The translations under genes were made by a program, and so were the position numbers. A stretch of 37,399 nucleotides of DNA, from positions 1 to 37,399 of IMG/VR virus record IMGVR_UViG_3300045988_077516. The stretch is one strand, 5' to 3'. The notes beneath the pieces were generated by a model, which worked only from the letters and a program-made list of their open reading frames with translations, ran no database searches and had not been told where the DNA came from. This DNA is from a virus. This document shows, one piece after another, positions 23,868 to 27,911 of this stretch. How positions within the stretch are numbered: the first letter of the stretch is position 1; each line of letters begins with the position of its first letter.

Positions 23868-23898
23868 TTGCGGGGTTCGATTCCCCTCAGGTCCATCC
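23868..23898 (+). other. tRNA 3'-end fragment; putative attP core
   Basis: GCGGGGTTCGATTCCCCTCAGGTCCA contains a T-arm (GGGG-TTCGATT-CCCC) and a 3' acceptor strand. There is no matching 5' half upstream. It lies between the arm repeats, next to the integrase gene. Confidence 0.6.
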
Positions 23899-23904
23899 TG
23901 AAAA

Positions 23905-23932
23905 GCTCGATTTTATCGGGCTTTTTTCTTTT
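23905..23932. terminator. Bidirectional terminator-like hairpin spanning the integrase stop codon
   Basis: GCTCGAT-TTT-ATCGGGC is followed by TTTTTTCTTTT on the + strand and by TTTT on the - strand. Confidence 0.5.
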
Positions 23933-25142
23933 CGTGTTGCATTTCGTGTTGCATAAATGCTAAAAATTCTATTTTGCTCTGTTCAGAATCCTCTTTTTCG
24001 TACAGAAGAAGCCAGGCTTTATATTTCTTCTGGTCAATATCTACAGGATCATTTTCGAGTAAATTTTCAAAGTATCTGTCGATTGTATCATCTGCTTTGA
24101 TACGACCATCTGAAAAGGTATGTGTATAGATTTGTTTCATAACCTTGTCTGTTTTCCAGCCGCCACGTTCCATGGCATATTTATCCGGGATGTTCAGCAT
24201 ATGCATGATAGATGCATTTTCATGTCGCAGATCGTGAAATGTCATGTGCGGGAGATGATTCTTTTTCAGAAGCATTGACCACTTCATATAGATAGCATGA
24301 CCGCTTTGAGCGATGAGATAATCGTCTGGATCACCTTTTGGTATCAATTCCATTATGTATGGAGGGATGCGGTGTTTTCGCAGACGTTTGGCTGCTTTTC
24401 CAGATTCTTTCACAGAAGCCTCGCCATTAATGTCTACCACCACCCGGTCAATTCGCAGATAGCCGTCTTCAATGTCTTTATATTTGATTCCTCGAATTTC
24501 ACTCATGGAAAAACTCAACCACATGGCAAGTAAGCACGGGAGTTCAATATCTGTTCCTTTTATGATCTCCAGAATTGTTTGTGGTGGGATCAATTCTTTC
24601 ACCTTTTGGGGCACAGTTGGAAGCTTTACGCAATAAGATGCGTCTGGCATACAGGAATGGATGGCAGCGGAAATAAAGCCGTAGGTATTTTTTACTGTTT
24701 TTGGAGATATAGGCTTCGGGTTTTTCTTGTTTCTTTTTGACAGACGCTTGCAGTCGCGATTAACAGCATCTTGCAGATCATCAGATGTTATATCACGCAG
24801 TCGGGTGTCAAAAAGTGGTTTGTAAGAATCGTATTGATCTTTGCGGTAGCCCTGCATCGTAGTGCCGGATAATGCACTGTCAGATTTCTCAATATAACGC
24901 TCGATCGCTTCCGATAGTGTAATATTTATAGTGCTTTGCTTATCCTTACGTTTAGTGAGAAGAAACTGGTTAGCTGCCAATTCTGCTTCGTGCTTCCCTC
25001 TTTTGGTCGGATCATCGGAAGTGAAAGATTCATAGATCCGCTTATTTTTCCAGATTCCGGATTTTTCATCGAATATCTTTTCGGTATGGCTATATGCAAG
25101 ACACCGCCATGAACCTGACGGTAATTTTTTTGCTGTTGGCAT
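23913..25142 (-). CDS. int: Tyrosine integrase
   Basis: MPTAKKLPSGSWRC N-terminus, with AGGAGG 7 nt upstream of ATG 25142. The C-terminal catalytic region has FHDLRH and ...KQIYTH. The upstream extension to 25217 lacks a ribosome-binding site. Confidence 0.9.
   Translation of the reverse strand: MPTAKKLPSGSWRCLAYSHTEKIFDEKSGIWKNKRIYESFTSDDPTKRGKHEAELAANQFLLTKRKDKQSTINITLSEAIERYIEKSDSALSGTTMQGYRKDQYDSYKPLFDTRLRDITSDDLQDAVNRDCKRLSKRNKKNPKPISPKTVKNTYGFISAAIHSCMPDASYCVKLPTVPQKVKELIPPQTILEIIKGTDIELPCLLAMWLSFSMSEIRGIKYKDIEDGYLRIDRVVVDINGEASVKESGKAAKRLRKHRIPPYIMELIPKGDPDDYLIAQSGHAIYMKWSMLLKKNHLPHMTFHDLRHENASIMHMLNIPDKYAMERGGWKTDKVMKQIYTHTFSDGRIKADDTIDRYFENLLENDPVDIDQKKYKAWLLLYEKEDSEQSKIEFLAFMQHEMQHEKKKAR
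23931..23955 (+). repeat. Right arm-type repeat: two tandem copies of TTCGTGTTGCAT, embedded in the 3' end of the integrase CDS
   Basis: Identical 25-mer. On the - strand it encodes MQHEMQHE at the integrase C-terminus. Confidence 0.6.
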
Positions 25143-25317
25143 AATATCATCCTCCTGTTCGTAAAATGGGTATAAAAATACACCTATACAGGTGCTGGAG
25201 GATTGTGGTATAATCATCTTGCTTAAGGGTGATTGTACTGGTCCTCAGACCTGTATAGATTCACTGATCCGCTTCGGTGCTGGTAACACTGGGGCGGATT
25301 TTTTTGTTTAATTGTTT

Positions 25318-26265
25318 TTAGATACTATCAAAATAAGTTTTGATTTTTTCAATGCAATCGTTTTTACAATTTCCATACATACGCTCAAGACTTGCACAAG
25401 AAGAAATTAATTGTACTAAATCAGCTTGTATGAAATCGTGATTTTCTTCGAATAGGTTTTTTGTATAAGTTAATATTTCAGTAGCAGAATTCATGCAGCA
25501 TACAGACTCCATATATTCTTCTAACTGTAATTTGTAGTTAGAAAAAATATTGTCATTGCTGTTTTCAAGAATATCCTCTTGCTCGATATCCAGAAGACTA
25601 TTATTGTCGGAAGCTGTTATGACTGTGTTGTCGGATATGTATTTTTTAATAACTACCTTTGCATATTTAATCAACGGAAGTATATTAAGTTCCAAACTGC
25701 AAGGAACAGGTGTACTGATGGAAGTAGCAAAGTTTTGTGCAACATCAAAATGTGAAAAACCTGTGTAATGTACTGGGTGTAATTCATCGAAGATATCAAC
25801 AAGAAAGATATCAGCGAGAAGACCAGTAATATTTTCAGATGATTTTCCGAATAATGTTGCAGTAATTGTAGATTTTTCAGTATCTGGCAATATCGTCAAG
25901 GACGATACCCTAAATTCCAAATCAGGGTTATAATTGATAACATTTATTTTTACAGGAACGGCAGGTTCTTTCAAAGTGCTCTTTATTGTTACAGCAGTGC
26001 CGTTTGCGATTACGCCCATAATATCATGATCATCAGTGGCATAATCGATATCGAGTCCGATAATTGCATTGGCACCCATTTGATTTGCGTTGCTGATTAA
26101 AAGGTCGAGAGCATTTTTTTGAGCCGCTTCAAGTTTTTCAGAGTACGAAGATAAAAGAATAAAGTCAGAAAGAAACTTTGTATTTAAAGCGTATTCTCCT
26201 GAACAAAATCCTAAATAATCTGTAATTTCATAATTTTCAAAATTAAAACCGGATGTCAGTTTCAT
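25318..26265 (-). CDS. YbjQ/UPF0145 (DUF74)-like N-terminal domain fused to ~215 aa of unknown function
   Basis: FENYEITDYLGFCSGEYALNTKFLSDF...ALDLLISNANQMGANAIIGLDIDYA...ANGTAV matches the YbjQ pattern. The gene is very AT-rich, and its ATG overlaps the stop of the upstream gene (ATGA). Confidence 0.7.
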   Translation of the reverse strand: MKLTSGFNFENYEITDYLGFCSGEYALNTKFLSDFILLSSYSEKLEAAQKNALDLLISNANQMGANAIIGLDIDYATDDHDIMGVIANGTAVTIKSTLKEPAVPVKINVINYNPDLEFRVSSLTILPDTEKSTITATLFGKSSENITGLLADIFLVDIFDELHPVHYTGFSHFDVAQNFATSISTPVPCSLELNILPLIKYAKVVIKKYISDNTVITASDNNSLLDIEQEDILENSNDNIFSNYKLQLEEYMESVCCMNSATEILTYTKNLFEENHDFIQADLVQLISSCASLERMYGNCKNDCIEKIKTYFDSI

Positions 26266-26831
26266 GGCTTGCTCTCCTTTATCTTTTTTAAGTCGTAACG
26301 CGGACCTTTGCGAATATCCAAAGTGTAAGGGTCAGGCATTTCATAGTCACCCCAGCATGTACGAAGGATTTCTTTAGGCGGTGTGATTTTTGCAGGTTCC
26401 AGCAACAGGAATTCTTGCTGTGAGGGCTGACGTCCGGCTTTCTTTATCATACGTGTTAATCGTCCTTTCATGCCGGCTTTTGTGTCATCGACTGTTACAT
26501 TCATGGTTAATGCTTCTACACACACGGCAGCAGCGTTTTCGTAAAGCCCCTGTTTTTCATAAATCATAGCCAGACGTTTATAGGCAGGAACACACGGAGG
26601 AGAGTCTTGCTTATATTTTTCACTGATTTTCTTCCAGATTTTAAAAGCTTCAATATTATTTTTGCAATTTTGTATGAAAATTGAAGCACGTTCGCCCTCG
26701 TAGTCTTTCAAGTTATACATGACAGACCAGTCAGATTCTATTGCTTCCATACCTGAAAAATATTGTTCAGATATTTGACGATAATCTTCGTCTAACCAAT
26801 AGGGTTCTTGCATATCGTCGTAAAATTCCAT
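26262..26831 (-). CDS. TPR-like helical protein (189 aa), unknown function
   Basis: AYKRLAMIYEKQGLYENAAAVCVEAL is a TPR-like helix pair. AAAGGAGAAAAGAGG lies upstream of the ATG. The gene is translationally coupled to the YbjQ-fusion gene. Confidence 0.65.
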   Translation of the reverse strand: MEFYDDMQEPYWLDEDYRQISEQYFSGMEAIESDWSVMYNLKDYEGERASIFIQNCKNNIEAFKIWKKISEKYKQDSPPCVPAYKRLAMIYEKQGLYENAAAVCVEALTMNVTVDDTKAGMKGRLTRMIKKAGRQPSQQEFLLLEPAKITPPKEILRTCWGDYEMPDPYTLDIRKGPRYDLKKIKESKP

Positions 26832-26846
26832 AACCTCTTTTCTCCT

Positions 26847-26901
26847 TTGAATACTTTTTCTTTTTCCGGAGATAATAACACCATGAAAATATTATTATCT
26901 C
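26847..26901. promoter_or_regulatory. Divergent overlapping promoters plus a 10-bp inverted-repeat operator between the cassette and the XRE gene
   Basis: + strand: TTGAAT (26847-52), 18-nt spacer, GATAAT (26871-76). - strand: extended -10 TGtTATTAT (complement of 26872-80). Inverted repeat GAGATAATAA (26869-78) / TTATTATCTC (26892-901). Confidence 0.5.
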
Positions 26902-27080
26902 AATTCTTGGAACAGCACCACCTGTCGATCAGGCAGGCGGCAATTATGACCGGTGTTCCCCGGTCTACGATCGGTGACATAGTGACCGGTCAGGTATGCC
27001 CTACTCTGGCAACTATGGAACAGTTGGCAGCAGGGTTGAAAACCACAATTTCAGAGTTGTATGACTCAGAATATAAGTGA
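26883..27080 (+). CDS. Small XRE-family HTH regulator (65 aa), possibly leaderless
   Basis: LSIRQAAIMTGVPRSTIGDIVTG is a classic HTH. ATG 26883 lies 7 nt after the GATAAT box. The upstream part of track ORF 26808 overlaps the divergent gene. Confidence 0.75.
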   Translation: MKILLSQFLEQHHLSIRQAAIMTGVPRSTIGDIVTGQVCPTLATMEQLAAGLKTTISELYDSEYK

Positions 27081-27090
27081 TTTTCAAAAA

Positions 27091-27124
27091 GCGTCCGGGA
27101 TTCCGGACAACGCACAACTTTTTT
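27091..27124 (+). terminator. Terminator-like hairpin after the XRE gene
   Basis: GTCCGG-GATT-CCGGAC, with a TTTTTT run about 10 nt downstream. Confidence 0.4.
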
Positions 27125-27269: not shown

Positions 27270-27389
27270 ATGGACTACAAAAACGAGATTATAAAACTGA
27301 TTAACAAACTGAATGCTTCTGATGAAACCTTTTTGAAACAGGTTTACATAATCATTAAGAAGCACTTTGACAGAAGAGAGGGACGTTAG
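27270..27389 (+). CDS. Small ORF (39 aa) convergent with the repressor gene
   Basis: GGGAGG lies 8 nt upstream of the ATG. Translation: MDYKNEIIKLINKLNASDETFLKQVYIIIKKHFDRREGR. The longer track ORF would begin inside the -35 box. Confidence 0.5.
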   Translation: MDYKNEIIKLINKLNASDETFLKQVYIIIKKHFDRREGR

Positions 27390-27404
27390 TCCCTTTTCTT
27401 TTTT
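27379..27404 (+). terminator. Rho-independent terminator at the tail-to-tail junction with the repressor gene
   Basis: AGGGAC-GTTA-GTCCCT followed by TTTCTTTTTTG. Confidence 0.65.
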
Positions 27405-27787
27405 GCCAAATTGTCAGCCAGTTTCTCAGCCGCTTCCATAAGTACCTTCTGTGATGCGGGAGATAGTTCGCTGTACGTTTTGACTATCTCCAAAATTATA
27501 CTGTAAAAAGCGTTGTCTTTTCCTTCTTCTAACAGATCTGAAACAATACCAGCTATTTCCTCATCTTCTGAGAGTTGCTGATACATCTCTCCATCACCTG
27601 TTTTCAGCCATTCTTCACTGACATTGAACTCACGGCATATCGCCCGACTCATTTGTTCCGTGAGATTTCTCTTTTCTTTTTCAATATTGGAGATTGCCAC
27701 TTTGGTCACTCCGAGCTTATTTCCGAATTGTTCCATTGTCATTTCTAAGCTTTTTCGGATTTCTTTGACACGCTCACCTTGCGTCAT
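27386..27787 (-). CDS. CI-like repressor (XRE HTH, no S24 peptidase domain)
   Basis: ERVKEIRKSLEMTMEQFGNKLGVTKVAISNIEKEKRNLT is an HTH. GGGAGG ribosome-binding site. It is divergent from the early operon. Confidence 0.85.
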   Translation of the reverse strand: MTQGERVKEIRKSLEMTMEQFGNKLGVTKVAISNIEKEKRNLTEQMSRAICREFNVSEEWLKTGDGEMYQQLSEDEEIAGIVSDLLEEGKDNAFYSIILEIVKTYSELSPASQKVLMEAAEKLADNLAKKKRD

Positions 27788-27821: not shown

Positions 27822-27850
27822 AGGATAACACTGTACGAGCAAAAAGTCAA
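27822..27850 (-). promoter_or_regulatory. Leftward repressor-maintenance-type promoter (weak -10)
   Basis: On the - strand: TTGACT, 17-nt spacer, TATCCT. Confidence 0.4.
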
Positions 27851-27858
27851 CAAAAAAA

Positions 27859-27873
27859 GTTAGCAAAGCTAAC
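27859..27873. promoter_or_regulatory. Palindromic operator candidate GTTAGCAAAGCTAAC
   Basis: Perfect 6-3-6 palindrome between the divergent promoters, 9 nt upstream of the rightward -35 box. Confidence 0.5.
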
Positions 27874-27882
27874 AAAAAGCAC

Positions 27883-27911
27883 TTGACAATGTTCTCGAAG
27901 ATTACTATAAT
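27883..27911 (+). promoter_or_regulatory. Rightward early promoter (consensus)
   Basis: TTGACA, 17-nt spacer, TATAAT. Confidence 0.75.

Follow-up and report, generated by a model that had tools for sequence, protein, structure and literature searches.

An XRE regulator and a YbjQ-fusion gene in a mosaic accessory-gene slot between phage integrase and CI repressor genes

Gene content and transcription signals of the locus

The IMG/VR virus record IMGVR_UViG_3300045988_077516 was analyzed over positions 1 to 37,399, and this whole stretch of 37,399 nucleotides is referred to here as the window. Between a tyrosine integrase gene and a CI-like repressor gene, the window, which represents a gut-bacterial prophage, carries three open reading frames (ORFs), which a preliminary description made from the letters alone had joined into one self-regulated cassette for defense or exclusion. 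Two are on the minus strand: the gene for a 315-amino-acid protein that begins with a YbjQ domain (25318-26265), hereafter the YbjQ fusion and the constant payload of the locus, and a TPR-like ORF of 189 amino acids (26262-26831), which is a chimeric passenger insert. The third, on the plus strand at 26883-27080, encodes a 65-amino-acid XRE-family helix-turn-helix (HTH) protein (Pfam HTH_3, 1.1e-9). Comparison with related prophages identified the integrase-CI interval as a mosaic slot into which accessory genes are swapped, and not as a co-evolved cassette. The ORF map agreed with the arrangement first described, in that the two minus-strand genes share a stop/start ATGA at 26262-26265 and the XRE gene is divergent, with 51 bp between its start and that of the 189-amino-acid ORF. 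The XRE start is ATG 26883, which gives a protein of the same length as those called in relatives; a 90-amino-acid version with a TTG start in the ORF listing was discarded as an over-extension.

The guanine-plus-cytosine (GC) content was 32.9% for the YbjQ-fusion gene, 40.4% for the TPR-like ORF, 46.0% for the XRE gene, and 41% for the integrase and CI genes, against a background of 50.3% over positions 1-22000 and 47.8% over the whole window. GC counts given earlier for four 60-nucleotide lines were exact (23.3%, 38.3%, 60.0%, and 61.7%), but these lines are extremes, and for the structural half of the window the mean is ∼50% rather than 60%. Across the family of the YbjQ fusion, the gene lay 6 to 10 points under its flanks in 32 of 35 loci, among them both the short and the long forms described below and syntenic chromosomal copies. 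A low GC content thus characterizes the family as a whole, and its use as a sign of recent acquisition was rejected.

A repeat search identified a perfect 10-bp inverted repeat at 26869-26901 (GAGATAATAA-13 nucleotides-TTATTATCTC), which spans the XRE ATG. Each arm holds a GATAAT −10-like hexamer, one per strand. The repeat is identical in the related locus L005, and locus L019 has ATAATAG-13-CTATTAT at the same position; the region is a candidate XRE operator. On the plus strand, a promoter scan returned the XRE promoter-like site TTGAAT-18-GATAAT (26847-26876; 9 of 12 matches), and on the minus strand an extended −10 sequence, TGAGATAAT, could serve as the promoter of the cargo. Together with the GATAAT hexamers in both arms, these sites suggest promoters that face each other across a shared operator, and the spacing between the plus-strand site and the XRE ATG points to a leaderless XRE mRNA that would start at or next to the ATG.

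Downstream of the XRE gene, a hairpin at 27092-27109 is flanked by T-runs on both strands (the minus-strand match from a terminator scan, the plus-strand T-run read from the sequence). It is likely a bidirectional terminator that stops XRE transcription and insulates the unit from that of CI. A second hairpin, with a 14-bp stem and a T-run on the plus strand only, lies at 25266-25300 between the YbjQ stop codon and the integrase gene and probably terminates transcription of the cargo only weakly. All of these promoter-like and terminator-like sites are consensus-level matches. Using Rfam, no RNA element was identified in the XRE-TPR-YbjQ unit.

Mosaic structure of the interval between integrase and CI

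The slot was compared across 24 close relatives with near-identical loci, the window included, for 22 of which DNA upstream was available. The XRE gene was present in all 22, and its distance to the YbjQ-fusion gene took three values. In 13 of the 24 loci it was 50 bp and the slot was empty; in 5 it was 617 bp, the slot being occupied by the 189-amino-acid TPR-like ORF; and in the other 6 it was 1,356 bp, with an unrelated 427-amino-acid lipoprotein gene in the slot. The TPR-like ORF is therefore missing from 19 of the 24. BLASTN alignments of the window with loci L005 to L013 (90 to 96% identity) covered 27283-26841 on the XRE side and 26289-25135 from the YbjQ gene to the integrase start, and the two segments are contiguous in those prophages; the 189-amino-acid gene is thus an insertion relative to them. 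The 427-amino-acid product, found between the XRE and YbjQ genes in L104, L105, and L109 to L112 (e.g., L109:4697-5980), is a predicted lipoprotein (signal MKKKVLILLCVFSCCNLVGC) with no NCBIfam family match.

Junctions were resolved by aligning the window with L005, L099, L109, and L018. In insert-free phages, ...GTATTCAAAGGAG is joined directly to AGCAAGCC-ATG, the ATG being the start of the YbjQ-fusion gene. In the window, ...GTATTCAAAGGAG is joined to AAAAGAGGTT-ATG, the start of the 189-amino-acid ORF, and that ORF runs out through ...GATAAAGGAG into AGCAAGCC-ATGA. Both junctions fall exactly at the Shine-Dalgarno sequence AAAGGAG on the minus strand, the upstream copy marking the left insert junction (26842-26848) and the downstream copy the right (26274-26280), after which the AGCAAGCC-ATG of the YbjQ-fusion gene follows as it does in insert-free relatives. 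Cargo was therefore inserted at the Shine-Dalgarno sequence, which is now duplicated. BLASTN also identified the source of the right-hand end: a 102-nucleotide segment (26274-26375, minus strand) shares 97% identity with the 3′ end of an unrelated 319-amino-acid gene, P0138, in locus L018 (L018:5290-5391) and brings both the tail of the ORF and the downstream AAAGGAG. Since a P0138-like 3′ end was here joined to the YbjQ leader, the ATGA overlap is a by-product of recombination and no evidence of coupling.

The 189-amino-acid ORF is accordingly a chimera, by comparison with its family, with both ends altered. Its core comprises amino acids 1-147 (26391-26831, minus strand), and 33 of the 34 residues at positions 153-186 match P0138 residues 283-316. 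All 11 homologues in family alignment A3 start with MGF or MFL, carry ∼25 additional N-terminal residues, and end in ...LLD/N; the window protein lacks this N terminus, and its last ∼40 residues are a foreign tail. AlphaFold2 predicted an all-helical repeat with a predicted local distance difference test (pLDDT) score of >90 over residues 10-145 and a disordered tail with scores of <50. The TPR-like helix pair noted earlier was recovered as a single TPR_1 motif on residues 82-111, but its Pfam score is under the cut-off (E value, 3.9e−5; 23.7 versus 27.8 bits). Best PDB matches to the model were 3-TPR domains, with E values of 0.06 to 0.3 only. The 162-amino-acid gene of L018 was considered as a TPR-like relative from which the chimera could have arisen by simple deletion, and was ruled out; that gene looks ImmA-like.

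An exhaustive profile search placed 625 representatives in the TPR-like family at an E value of ≤1e−10. The domain stands alone or occurs at the C terminus of proteins with an N-terminal DUF4236 or TerB_N (P0157, P0168, P0203, and P0225); a literature search on DUF4236 returned no functional study, and TBLASTN searches with the TPR-like ORF against phages and plasmids gave no match. Outside the slot, four independent contexts were identified, all of them prophage lysogeny modules and none with a YbjQ gene. The TPR-like gene adjoins the integrase in L014; follows CI and directly precedes a T5orf172 gene in L016 (4114-7469), with SLATT and ThsB-TIR genes further on; lies after CI and before T5orf172 and then a serine recombinase gene in L128 (1047-3206); and has an HTH_3 repressor gene on one side and a Peptidase_M78 (ImmA-like) gene on the other in L127 (3414-4678). 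Conversely, no match to the TPR-like ORF occurred in any of the other 34 non-redundant loci of the YbjQ fusion. Where the two do adjoin, TPR-like alleles are 98.9 to 99.8% identical across loci whose YbjQ alleles differ by a synonymous divergence (dS) of 0.17, and the two genes therefore have separate histories.

These results bear directly on the view that the XRE, TPR-like, and YbjQ-fusion proteins are one self-regulated, co-evolved system for defense or exclusion, with the two minus-strand proteins acting together. Its attractions are the shared orientation and ATGA overlap of the two genes, their location between integrase and CI, the frequency of the chimeric arrangement (cluster P0121 has 113 member sequences, and the arrangement is found in 5 of the 24 loci), and the fact that four of five nucleotide differences in the TPR-like ORF are synonymous. 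Against these stand the absence of the ORF from most close relatives, the origin of the overlap in a join at the ribosome-binding site, the alteration of both ends of the ORF, the differing allele histories, the failure of the homologues to co-occur, and the lack of PADLOC matches. The preliminary description had itself named lack of co-occurrence elsewhere as fatal to the cassette, and the finding of a YbjQ gene in 0 of 4 other TPR-like contexts refutes it; cooperation of the three genes as a single system is considered highly improbable. What survives of the earlier proposal is a variable accessory region in the integrase-CI interval, with its own XRE gene, promoter-like sites, flanking terminator-like hairpins, and purifying selection on the main gene.

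The swapping extends beyond the slot itself. The phages in which the XRE gene and the YbjQ fusion occur together differ in their integrase (at least three types), in their CI (several types), and in their replication modules, and in L019, an element of Hominisplanchenecus faecis CLA-AA-H246, the XRE gene and a YbjQ fusion (56% identical) lie beside a serine recombinase gene. The integrase gene of L018 is 99% identical to that of the window at the DNA level, yet the CI-integrase interval of L018 holds other cargo in place of the XRE-TPR-YbjQ unit. With the three slot states, this makes the cargo polymorphic in presence and absence among related phages. The L018 cargo (L018:3924-6221) comprises genes for the ImmA-like 162-amino-acid protein, the 319-amino-acid P0138, and then, with an ATGA overlap, a 273-amino-acid cysteine-rich secreted protein or lipoprotein.

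The genes that border the interval were also characterized. The integrase (23913-25142, minus strand; Pfam Phage_integrase) is 409 amino acids long from ATG 25142. Homology between the window and the L018 prophage stops at L018:7673, inside a transfer-messenger RNA (tmRNA) gene (L018:7650-7995; ARAGORN, tag AEDNYALAA), and Rfam gave a weak tmRNA 3′-end match at window positions 23872-23886; these observations indicate that this phage type integrates into ssrA. A probable core of the phage attachment site attP lies at 23872-23895. Relatives of the L005 type carry a different integrase and adjoin a TRAM/tRNA-U5-methyltransferase gene. On the other side, the CI-like repressor (133 amino acids; 27386-27787, minus strand) matched HTH_19/HTH_3 and has no peptidase domain. 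A 39-amino-acid micro-ORF (MDYKNEIIKLINKLN...) at 27270-27389 on the plus strand is convergent on the CI stop codon and may be a small regulator or antisense unit for CI; a TTGCAT-17-TAATAT sequence upstream of it, read by eye, is under the scan threshold. Genes of 32 to 36 amino acids were called at this position in L005 to L013, and L019 has a 53-amino-acid analogue. A perfect consensus promoter, TTGACA-17-TATAAT, at 27883-27911 on the plus strand and a promoter-like site for CI at 27850-27822 on the minus strand are arranged back to back, and 27822-27911 probably constitutes the phage immunity switch. Elsewhere in the window, ARAGORN identified a tRNA-like gene at 1587-1662 on the plus strand with an abnormal two-base anticodon ("ta").

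The structure of CI raises the question of whether the YbjQ fusion, the TPR-like protein, or both act in lysis-lysogeny control, as a sensor, antirepressor, or modulator of a peptidase-less CI in the place of an ImmA-type protease. The CI protein consists of an HTH domain and a helical tail, and the stretch from integrase to CI showed no Peptidase_M78 gene. The gene order is CI, YbjQ fusion, and integrase in L024 and L113 and CI, YbjQ fusion, and ImmA-like protein in L028; the TPR-like gene of L127 neighbors Peptidase_M78, and all five TPR-like contexts, that of the window included, are lysogeny modules. However, the XRE-YbjQ module is shared by phages whose CI proteins (133, 140, 168, and 123 amino acids) are unrelated, which argues against a repressor-specific partner. 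The module also has its own regulator, and the long-form relatives of the YbjQ fusion are chromosomal with no phage nearby. A role of this kind is accordingly considered unlikely.

The YbjQ-fusion protein and its family

AlphaFold2 modeled the 315-amino-acid protein with a pLDDT of 84 as three domains, all encoded on the minus strand: a YbjQ domain (amino acids 1-96; 25978-26265), a predicted beta-sandwich (amino acids 105-217; 25615-25953), and, after a disordered linker, a predicted four-helix C-terminal domain (amino acids 240-314; 25324-25548). Assignment of the N-terminal ∼100 residues to YbjQ, first made by eye, was supported by sequence and fold. Pfam YbjQ_1 (PF01906) matched residues 1-94 (E value, 1.8e−15; 57.8 bits against a cut-off of 23), and the profile of alignment A1 matched 2gtc, 1y2i, and 1vr4 at 1e−25 to 1e−26. 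Foldseek against the PDB returned 1y2i at an E value of 2.5e−9, with matches ranging to 2e−7 that included 1vr4; for 1vr4_B, the target-normalized template modeling score was 0.95 with a root-mean-square deviation of 0.9. Among solved structures, the full model was explained over its YbjQ part only (1y2i, 1vr4, and 3qkb). The beta-sandwich gave generic Ig-like PDB matches, none significant (E value, >0.03), and the four-helix domain gave zero. When the C-terminal helical domain was used by itself as a profile query, only fragments of the same family were recovered and no other architecture, and no catalytic, nucleotide-binding, or membrane feature was detectable in the 315-amino-acid protein.

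The three-domain architecture is conserved. There were 154 cluster-level homologues of 310 to 405 amino acids that aligned end to end with the 315-amino-acid protein, and BFVD holds one full-length phage homologue, which is uncharacterized. In the family alignment, E263, E294, Y297, G298, N299, and K301 of the helical domain are near-invariant, the last five within a conserved C-terminal motif, E294-R-x-Y297-G298-N299-x-K301. The ratio of nonsynonymous to synonymous substitution (dN/dS) was ∼0.16 in each of the three domains, and the reading frame was intact in 12 of 12 alleles; the YbjQ fusion evolves under purifying selection. Megablast of the region against isolate phages gave no match, and TBLASTN of the YbjQ fusion against isolate phages and plasmids identified single-domain YbjQ genes, with the full architecture in none.

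A distance tree divided the family into two groups, long and short forms. In long forms (355 to 405 amino acids), a RanBP2-like zinc ribbon (WxCxCG...N...CxxC) separates the beta-sandwich from the helical domain; their genes mostly lie among housekeeping genes, e.g., in synteny with thyA-folA. Examples are L033, L055 (5980-7083), and L058, and in Wujia-type genomes the gene follows thyA-folA. Short forms (313 to 345 amino acids) lack the zinc ribbon, and the window protein belongs to this clade, which from the tree and domain content appears to derive from the longer Lachnospiraceae/Clostridia family. Among the short forms, 8 of 16 lineages occur in prophages or adjacent to recombinase genes and 2 more are next to bacteriophage exclusion (BREX) or Wadjet genes: in L027 (702-5944), BREX PglZ and BrxL lie directly upstream of the short-form member, and in L020 (4298-5899), Wadjet JetA is divergent from it. 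The clade without the zinc ribbon moves between prophages and genomic islands. Other family members were found near a type I restriction-modification system (L047, 8153-11520) and an AbiL/AriA-like ATPase pair (L040, 2191-4962), and one DRT-type reverse transcriptase match occurred among the neighbors of family loci. Within 4 kb of the 34 non-redundant loci, a small sample, neighbors were otherwise mostly housekeeping genes. Such contexts had been named beforehand as counting against a defense cassette.

The nesting of the short forms as a derived clade, together with the conservation and synteny of the long forms in Lachnospiraceae, would suit a host mimic, i.e., a phage copy that co-assembles or competes with the chromosomal long form through its YbjQ oligomerization domain and alters the function of that protein to the benefit of the phage or lysogen. 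By analogy with the solved single-domain YbjQ proteins, for which five chains are deposited per entry, the domain could well oligomerize. The presence of a long-form paralogue in the prophage hosts is an assumption, though; some short forms are the sole detectable copy on non-phage chromosomal contigs, and the long form is itself without an assigned function. Mimicry of a host protein is regarded as a rather improbable explanation, somewhat more so than lysogeny control.

Searches for known systems gave little. No informative match was returned for the locus proteins by PADLOC, PHROGs, or NCBIfam. With PADLOC-DB v2.0, neither the 315- nor the 189-amino-acid protein had a match at an E value of ≤1, so that this check, proposed earlier, lent no support to a defense cassette. 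As first noted, no nuclease, ATPase, TIR, or sirtuin match was identified using Pfam, PADLOC, and NCBIfam, and there was no hydrophobic N terminus. The XRE protein matched only generic HTH entries in PADLOC (E values, 0.002 to 0.04), capH and control proteins among them, and showed weak resemblance to HigA-type antitoxins in NCBIfam (7.8e−5, under the cut-off). This resemblance and the tight pairing of the XRE and YbjQ-fusion genes in prophages could point to a toxin-antitoxin or abortive-infection pair in which the YbjQ fusion is toxic on release and XRE is its antitoxin or repressor. The two genes are divergent, however, rather than a co-directional bicistronic operon; no toxin-like domain was found using Pfam, PADLOC, NCBIfam, and Foldseek; and dozens of chromosomal homologues occur alone without an HTH partner. 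A toxic pair is thus very unlikely.

The "heavy-metal-binding" label attached to YbjQ is a prediction, and YbjQ has no established function. Literature searches on YbjQ, UPF0145, and DUF74 returned no functional study, and Pfam and PDB likewise give no function.

Proposed role and comparison with known systems

With modest confidence, the locus is read as a mosaic slot in which the XRE and YbjQ-fusion genes form a stable two-gene module and the YbjQ fusion is a nonenzymatic, oligomeric binding protein expressed in the lysogen. The conserved unit consists of the 65-amino-acid XRE regulator, probably translated from a leaderless mRNA, and the divergent YbjQ fusion, and the two promoters appear to face each other across the 10-13-10 inverted repeat. 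Because the repeat covers both −10 boxes, XRE binding would set the expression of both genes. Extra cargo enters between the promoter and the YbjQ-fusion gene by recombination at AAAGGAG; here it is the TPR-like ORF with its shortened N terminus and borrowed C-terminal tail, and in sister phages the 427-amino-acid lipoprotein gene or nothing. Given that no catalytic or membrane feature was found, multivalent binding by an oligomeric scaffold appears the most plausible activity, and the YbjQ fusion could act in the lysogen by sequestering or blocking a target of phage or host origin. A gene of benefit to the lysogen would fit its location, its regulator, the selection on it, and its mobility; the benefit may lie in the exclusion of other phages or in altered host physiology.

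Several points weigh against this reading. Many family members lie in ordinary chromosomal neighborhoods, and a housekeeping function in the cell, brought along by the phage, therefore fits equally well. Activity in the lysogen is deduced from position and orientation only, and the oligomeric, perhaps pentameric, state of the 315-amino-acid protein is extrapolated from solved proteins that have the YbjQ domain alone. The minus-strand extended −10 was read by eye and failed the promoter-scan criteria, and the hairpin at 25266-25300 has no T-run on the coding strand, so that transcription of the unit may continue into the integrase gene. None of the analyses of the YbjQ fusion pointed to a binding target.

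A defense or exclusion role for the XRE and YbjQ-fusion unit is doubtful, if less so than the alternatives weighed above. In its most specific version, which is held with similar doubt, the short YbjQ fusion without a zinc ribbon, under the control of its leaderless XRE partner across face-to-face promoters, would be a new single-protein, nonenzymatic antiphage or superinfection-exclusion factor that works by multivalent binding; it would have been mobilized by temperate phages and defense islands from a conserved Lachnospiraceae family, with its 5′ untranslated region doubling as a docking site for cargo. If the pair does protect lysogens, this would be the first function for a YbjQ-domain protein and would add a nonenzymatic, oligomeric, prophage-borne type of immunity in abundant human-gut Lachnospiraceae, where few defense genes have been tested. 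The locus also shows how accessory genes can be stacked by recombination at a resident ribosome-binding site, with chimeric ORFs and chance stop/start overlaps as the result; an ATGA overlap alone is no proof of functional coupling.

The individual parts of the locus have recognizable counterparts. The N-terminal 96 residues of the YbjQ fusion resemble the YbjQ/UPF0145/DUF74 family (PF01906; 1vr4, 1y2i, 2gtc, and 3qkb) in sequence and fold, whereas classical YbjQ proteins are single domains of ∼100 to 130 amino acids and the 315-amino-acid protein adds the beta-sandwich and the four-helix domain. A small HTH gene divergent from its payload and a symmetric site that covers the promoter region recall the C-protein control of restriction-modification systems and CapH of cyclic-oligonucleotide-based antiphage signaling systems (CBASS). 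Here, however, the payload gene belongs to neither restriction, CBASS, nor any other known defense system, and the likeness is that of generic HTH regulation only. Firmicutes elements of the ICEBs1 type carry ImmR-ImmA-integrase lysogeny operons, with which the locus shares the placement of accessory genes between an HTH repressor and a recombinase, a TPR-like homologue also being found beside Peptidase_M78. It departs from them in that the integrase-CI interval of the window has no ImmA-type protease gene and the YbjQ unit is equipped with a divergent XRE gene of its own and a terminator-like hairpin before CI.

The closest parallel is with prophage morons, independent transcription units that spread horizontally among phages (PMC3594210; for the concept, see also PMC7067206), and with accessory loci of the integrase-repressor interval such as lambda rexAB and sieB and P2 old/tin/fun. 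Like these, the locus lies near the attachment site and an immunity gene, differs in composition from the structural genes, has promoter-like and terminator-like signals of its own, is polymorphic in presence and absence, and is spread across different integrases and repressors. Unlike them, it encodes proteins unrelated to any characterized moron product, and the entry of additional cargo precisely at a resident gene's ribosome-binding site is a specific feature of this locus. The locus therefore belongs to an already known kind, that of prophage accessory genes in the integrase-repressor interval.

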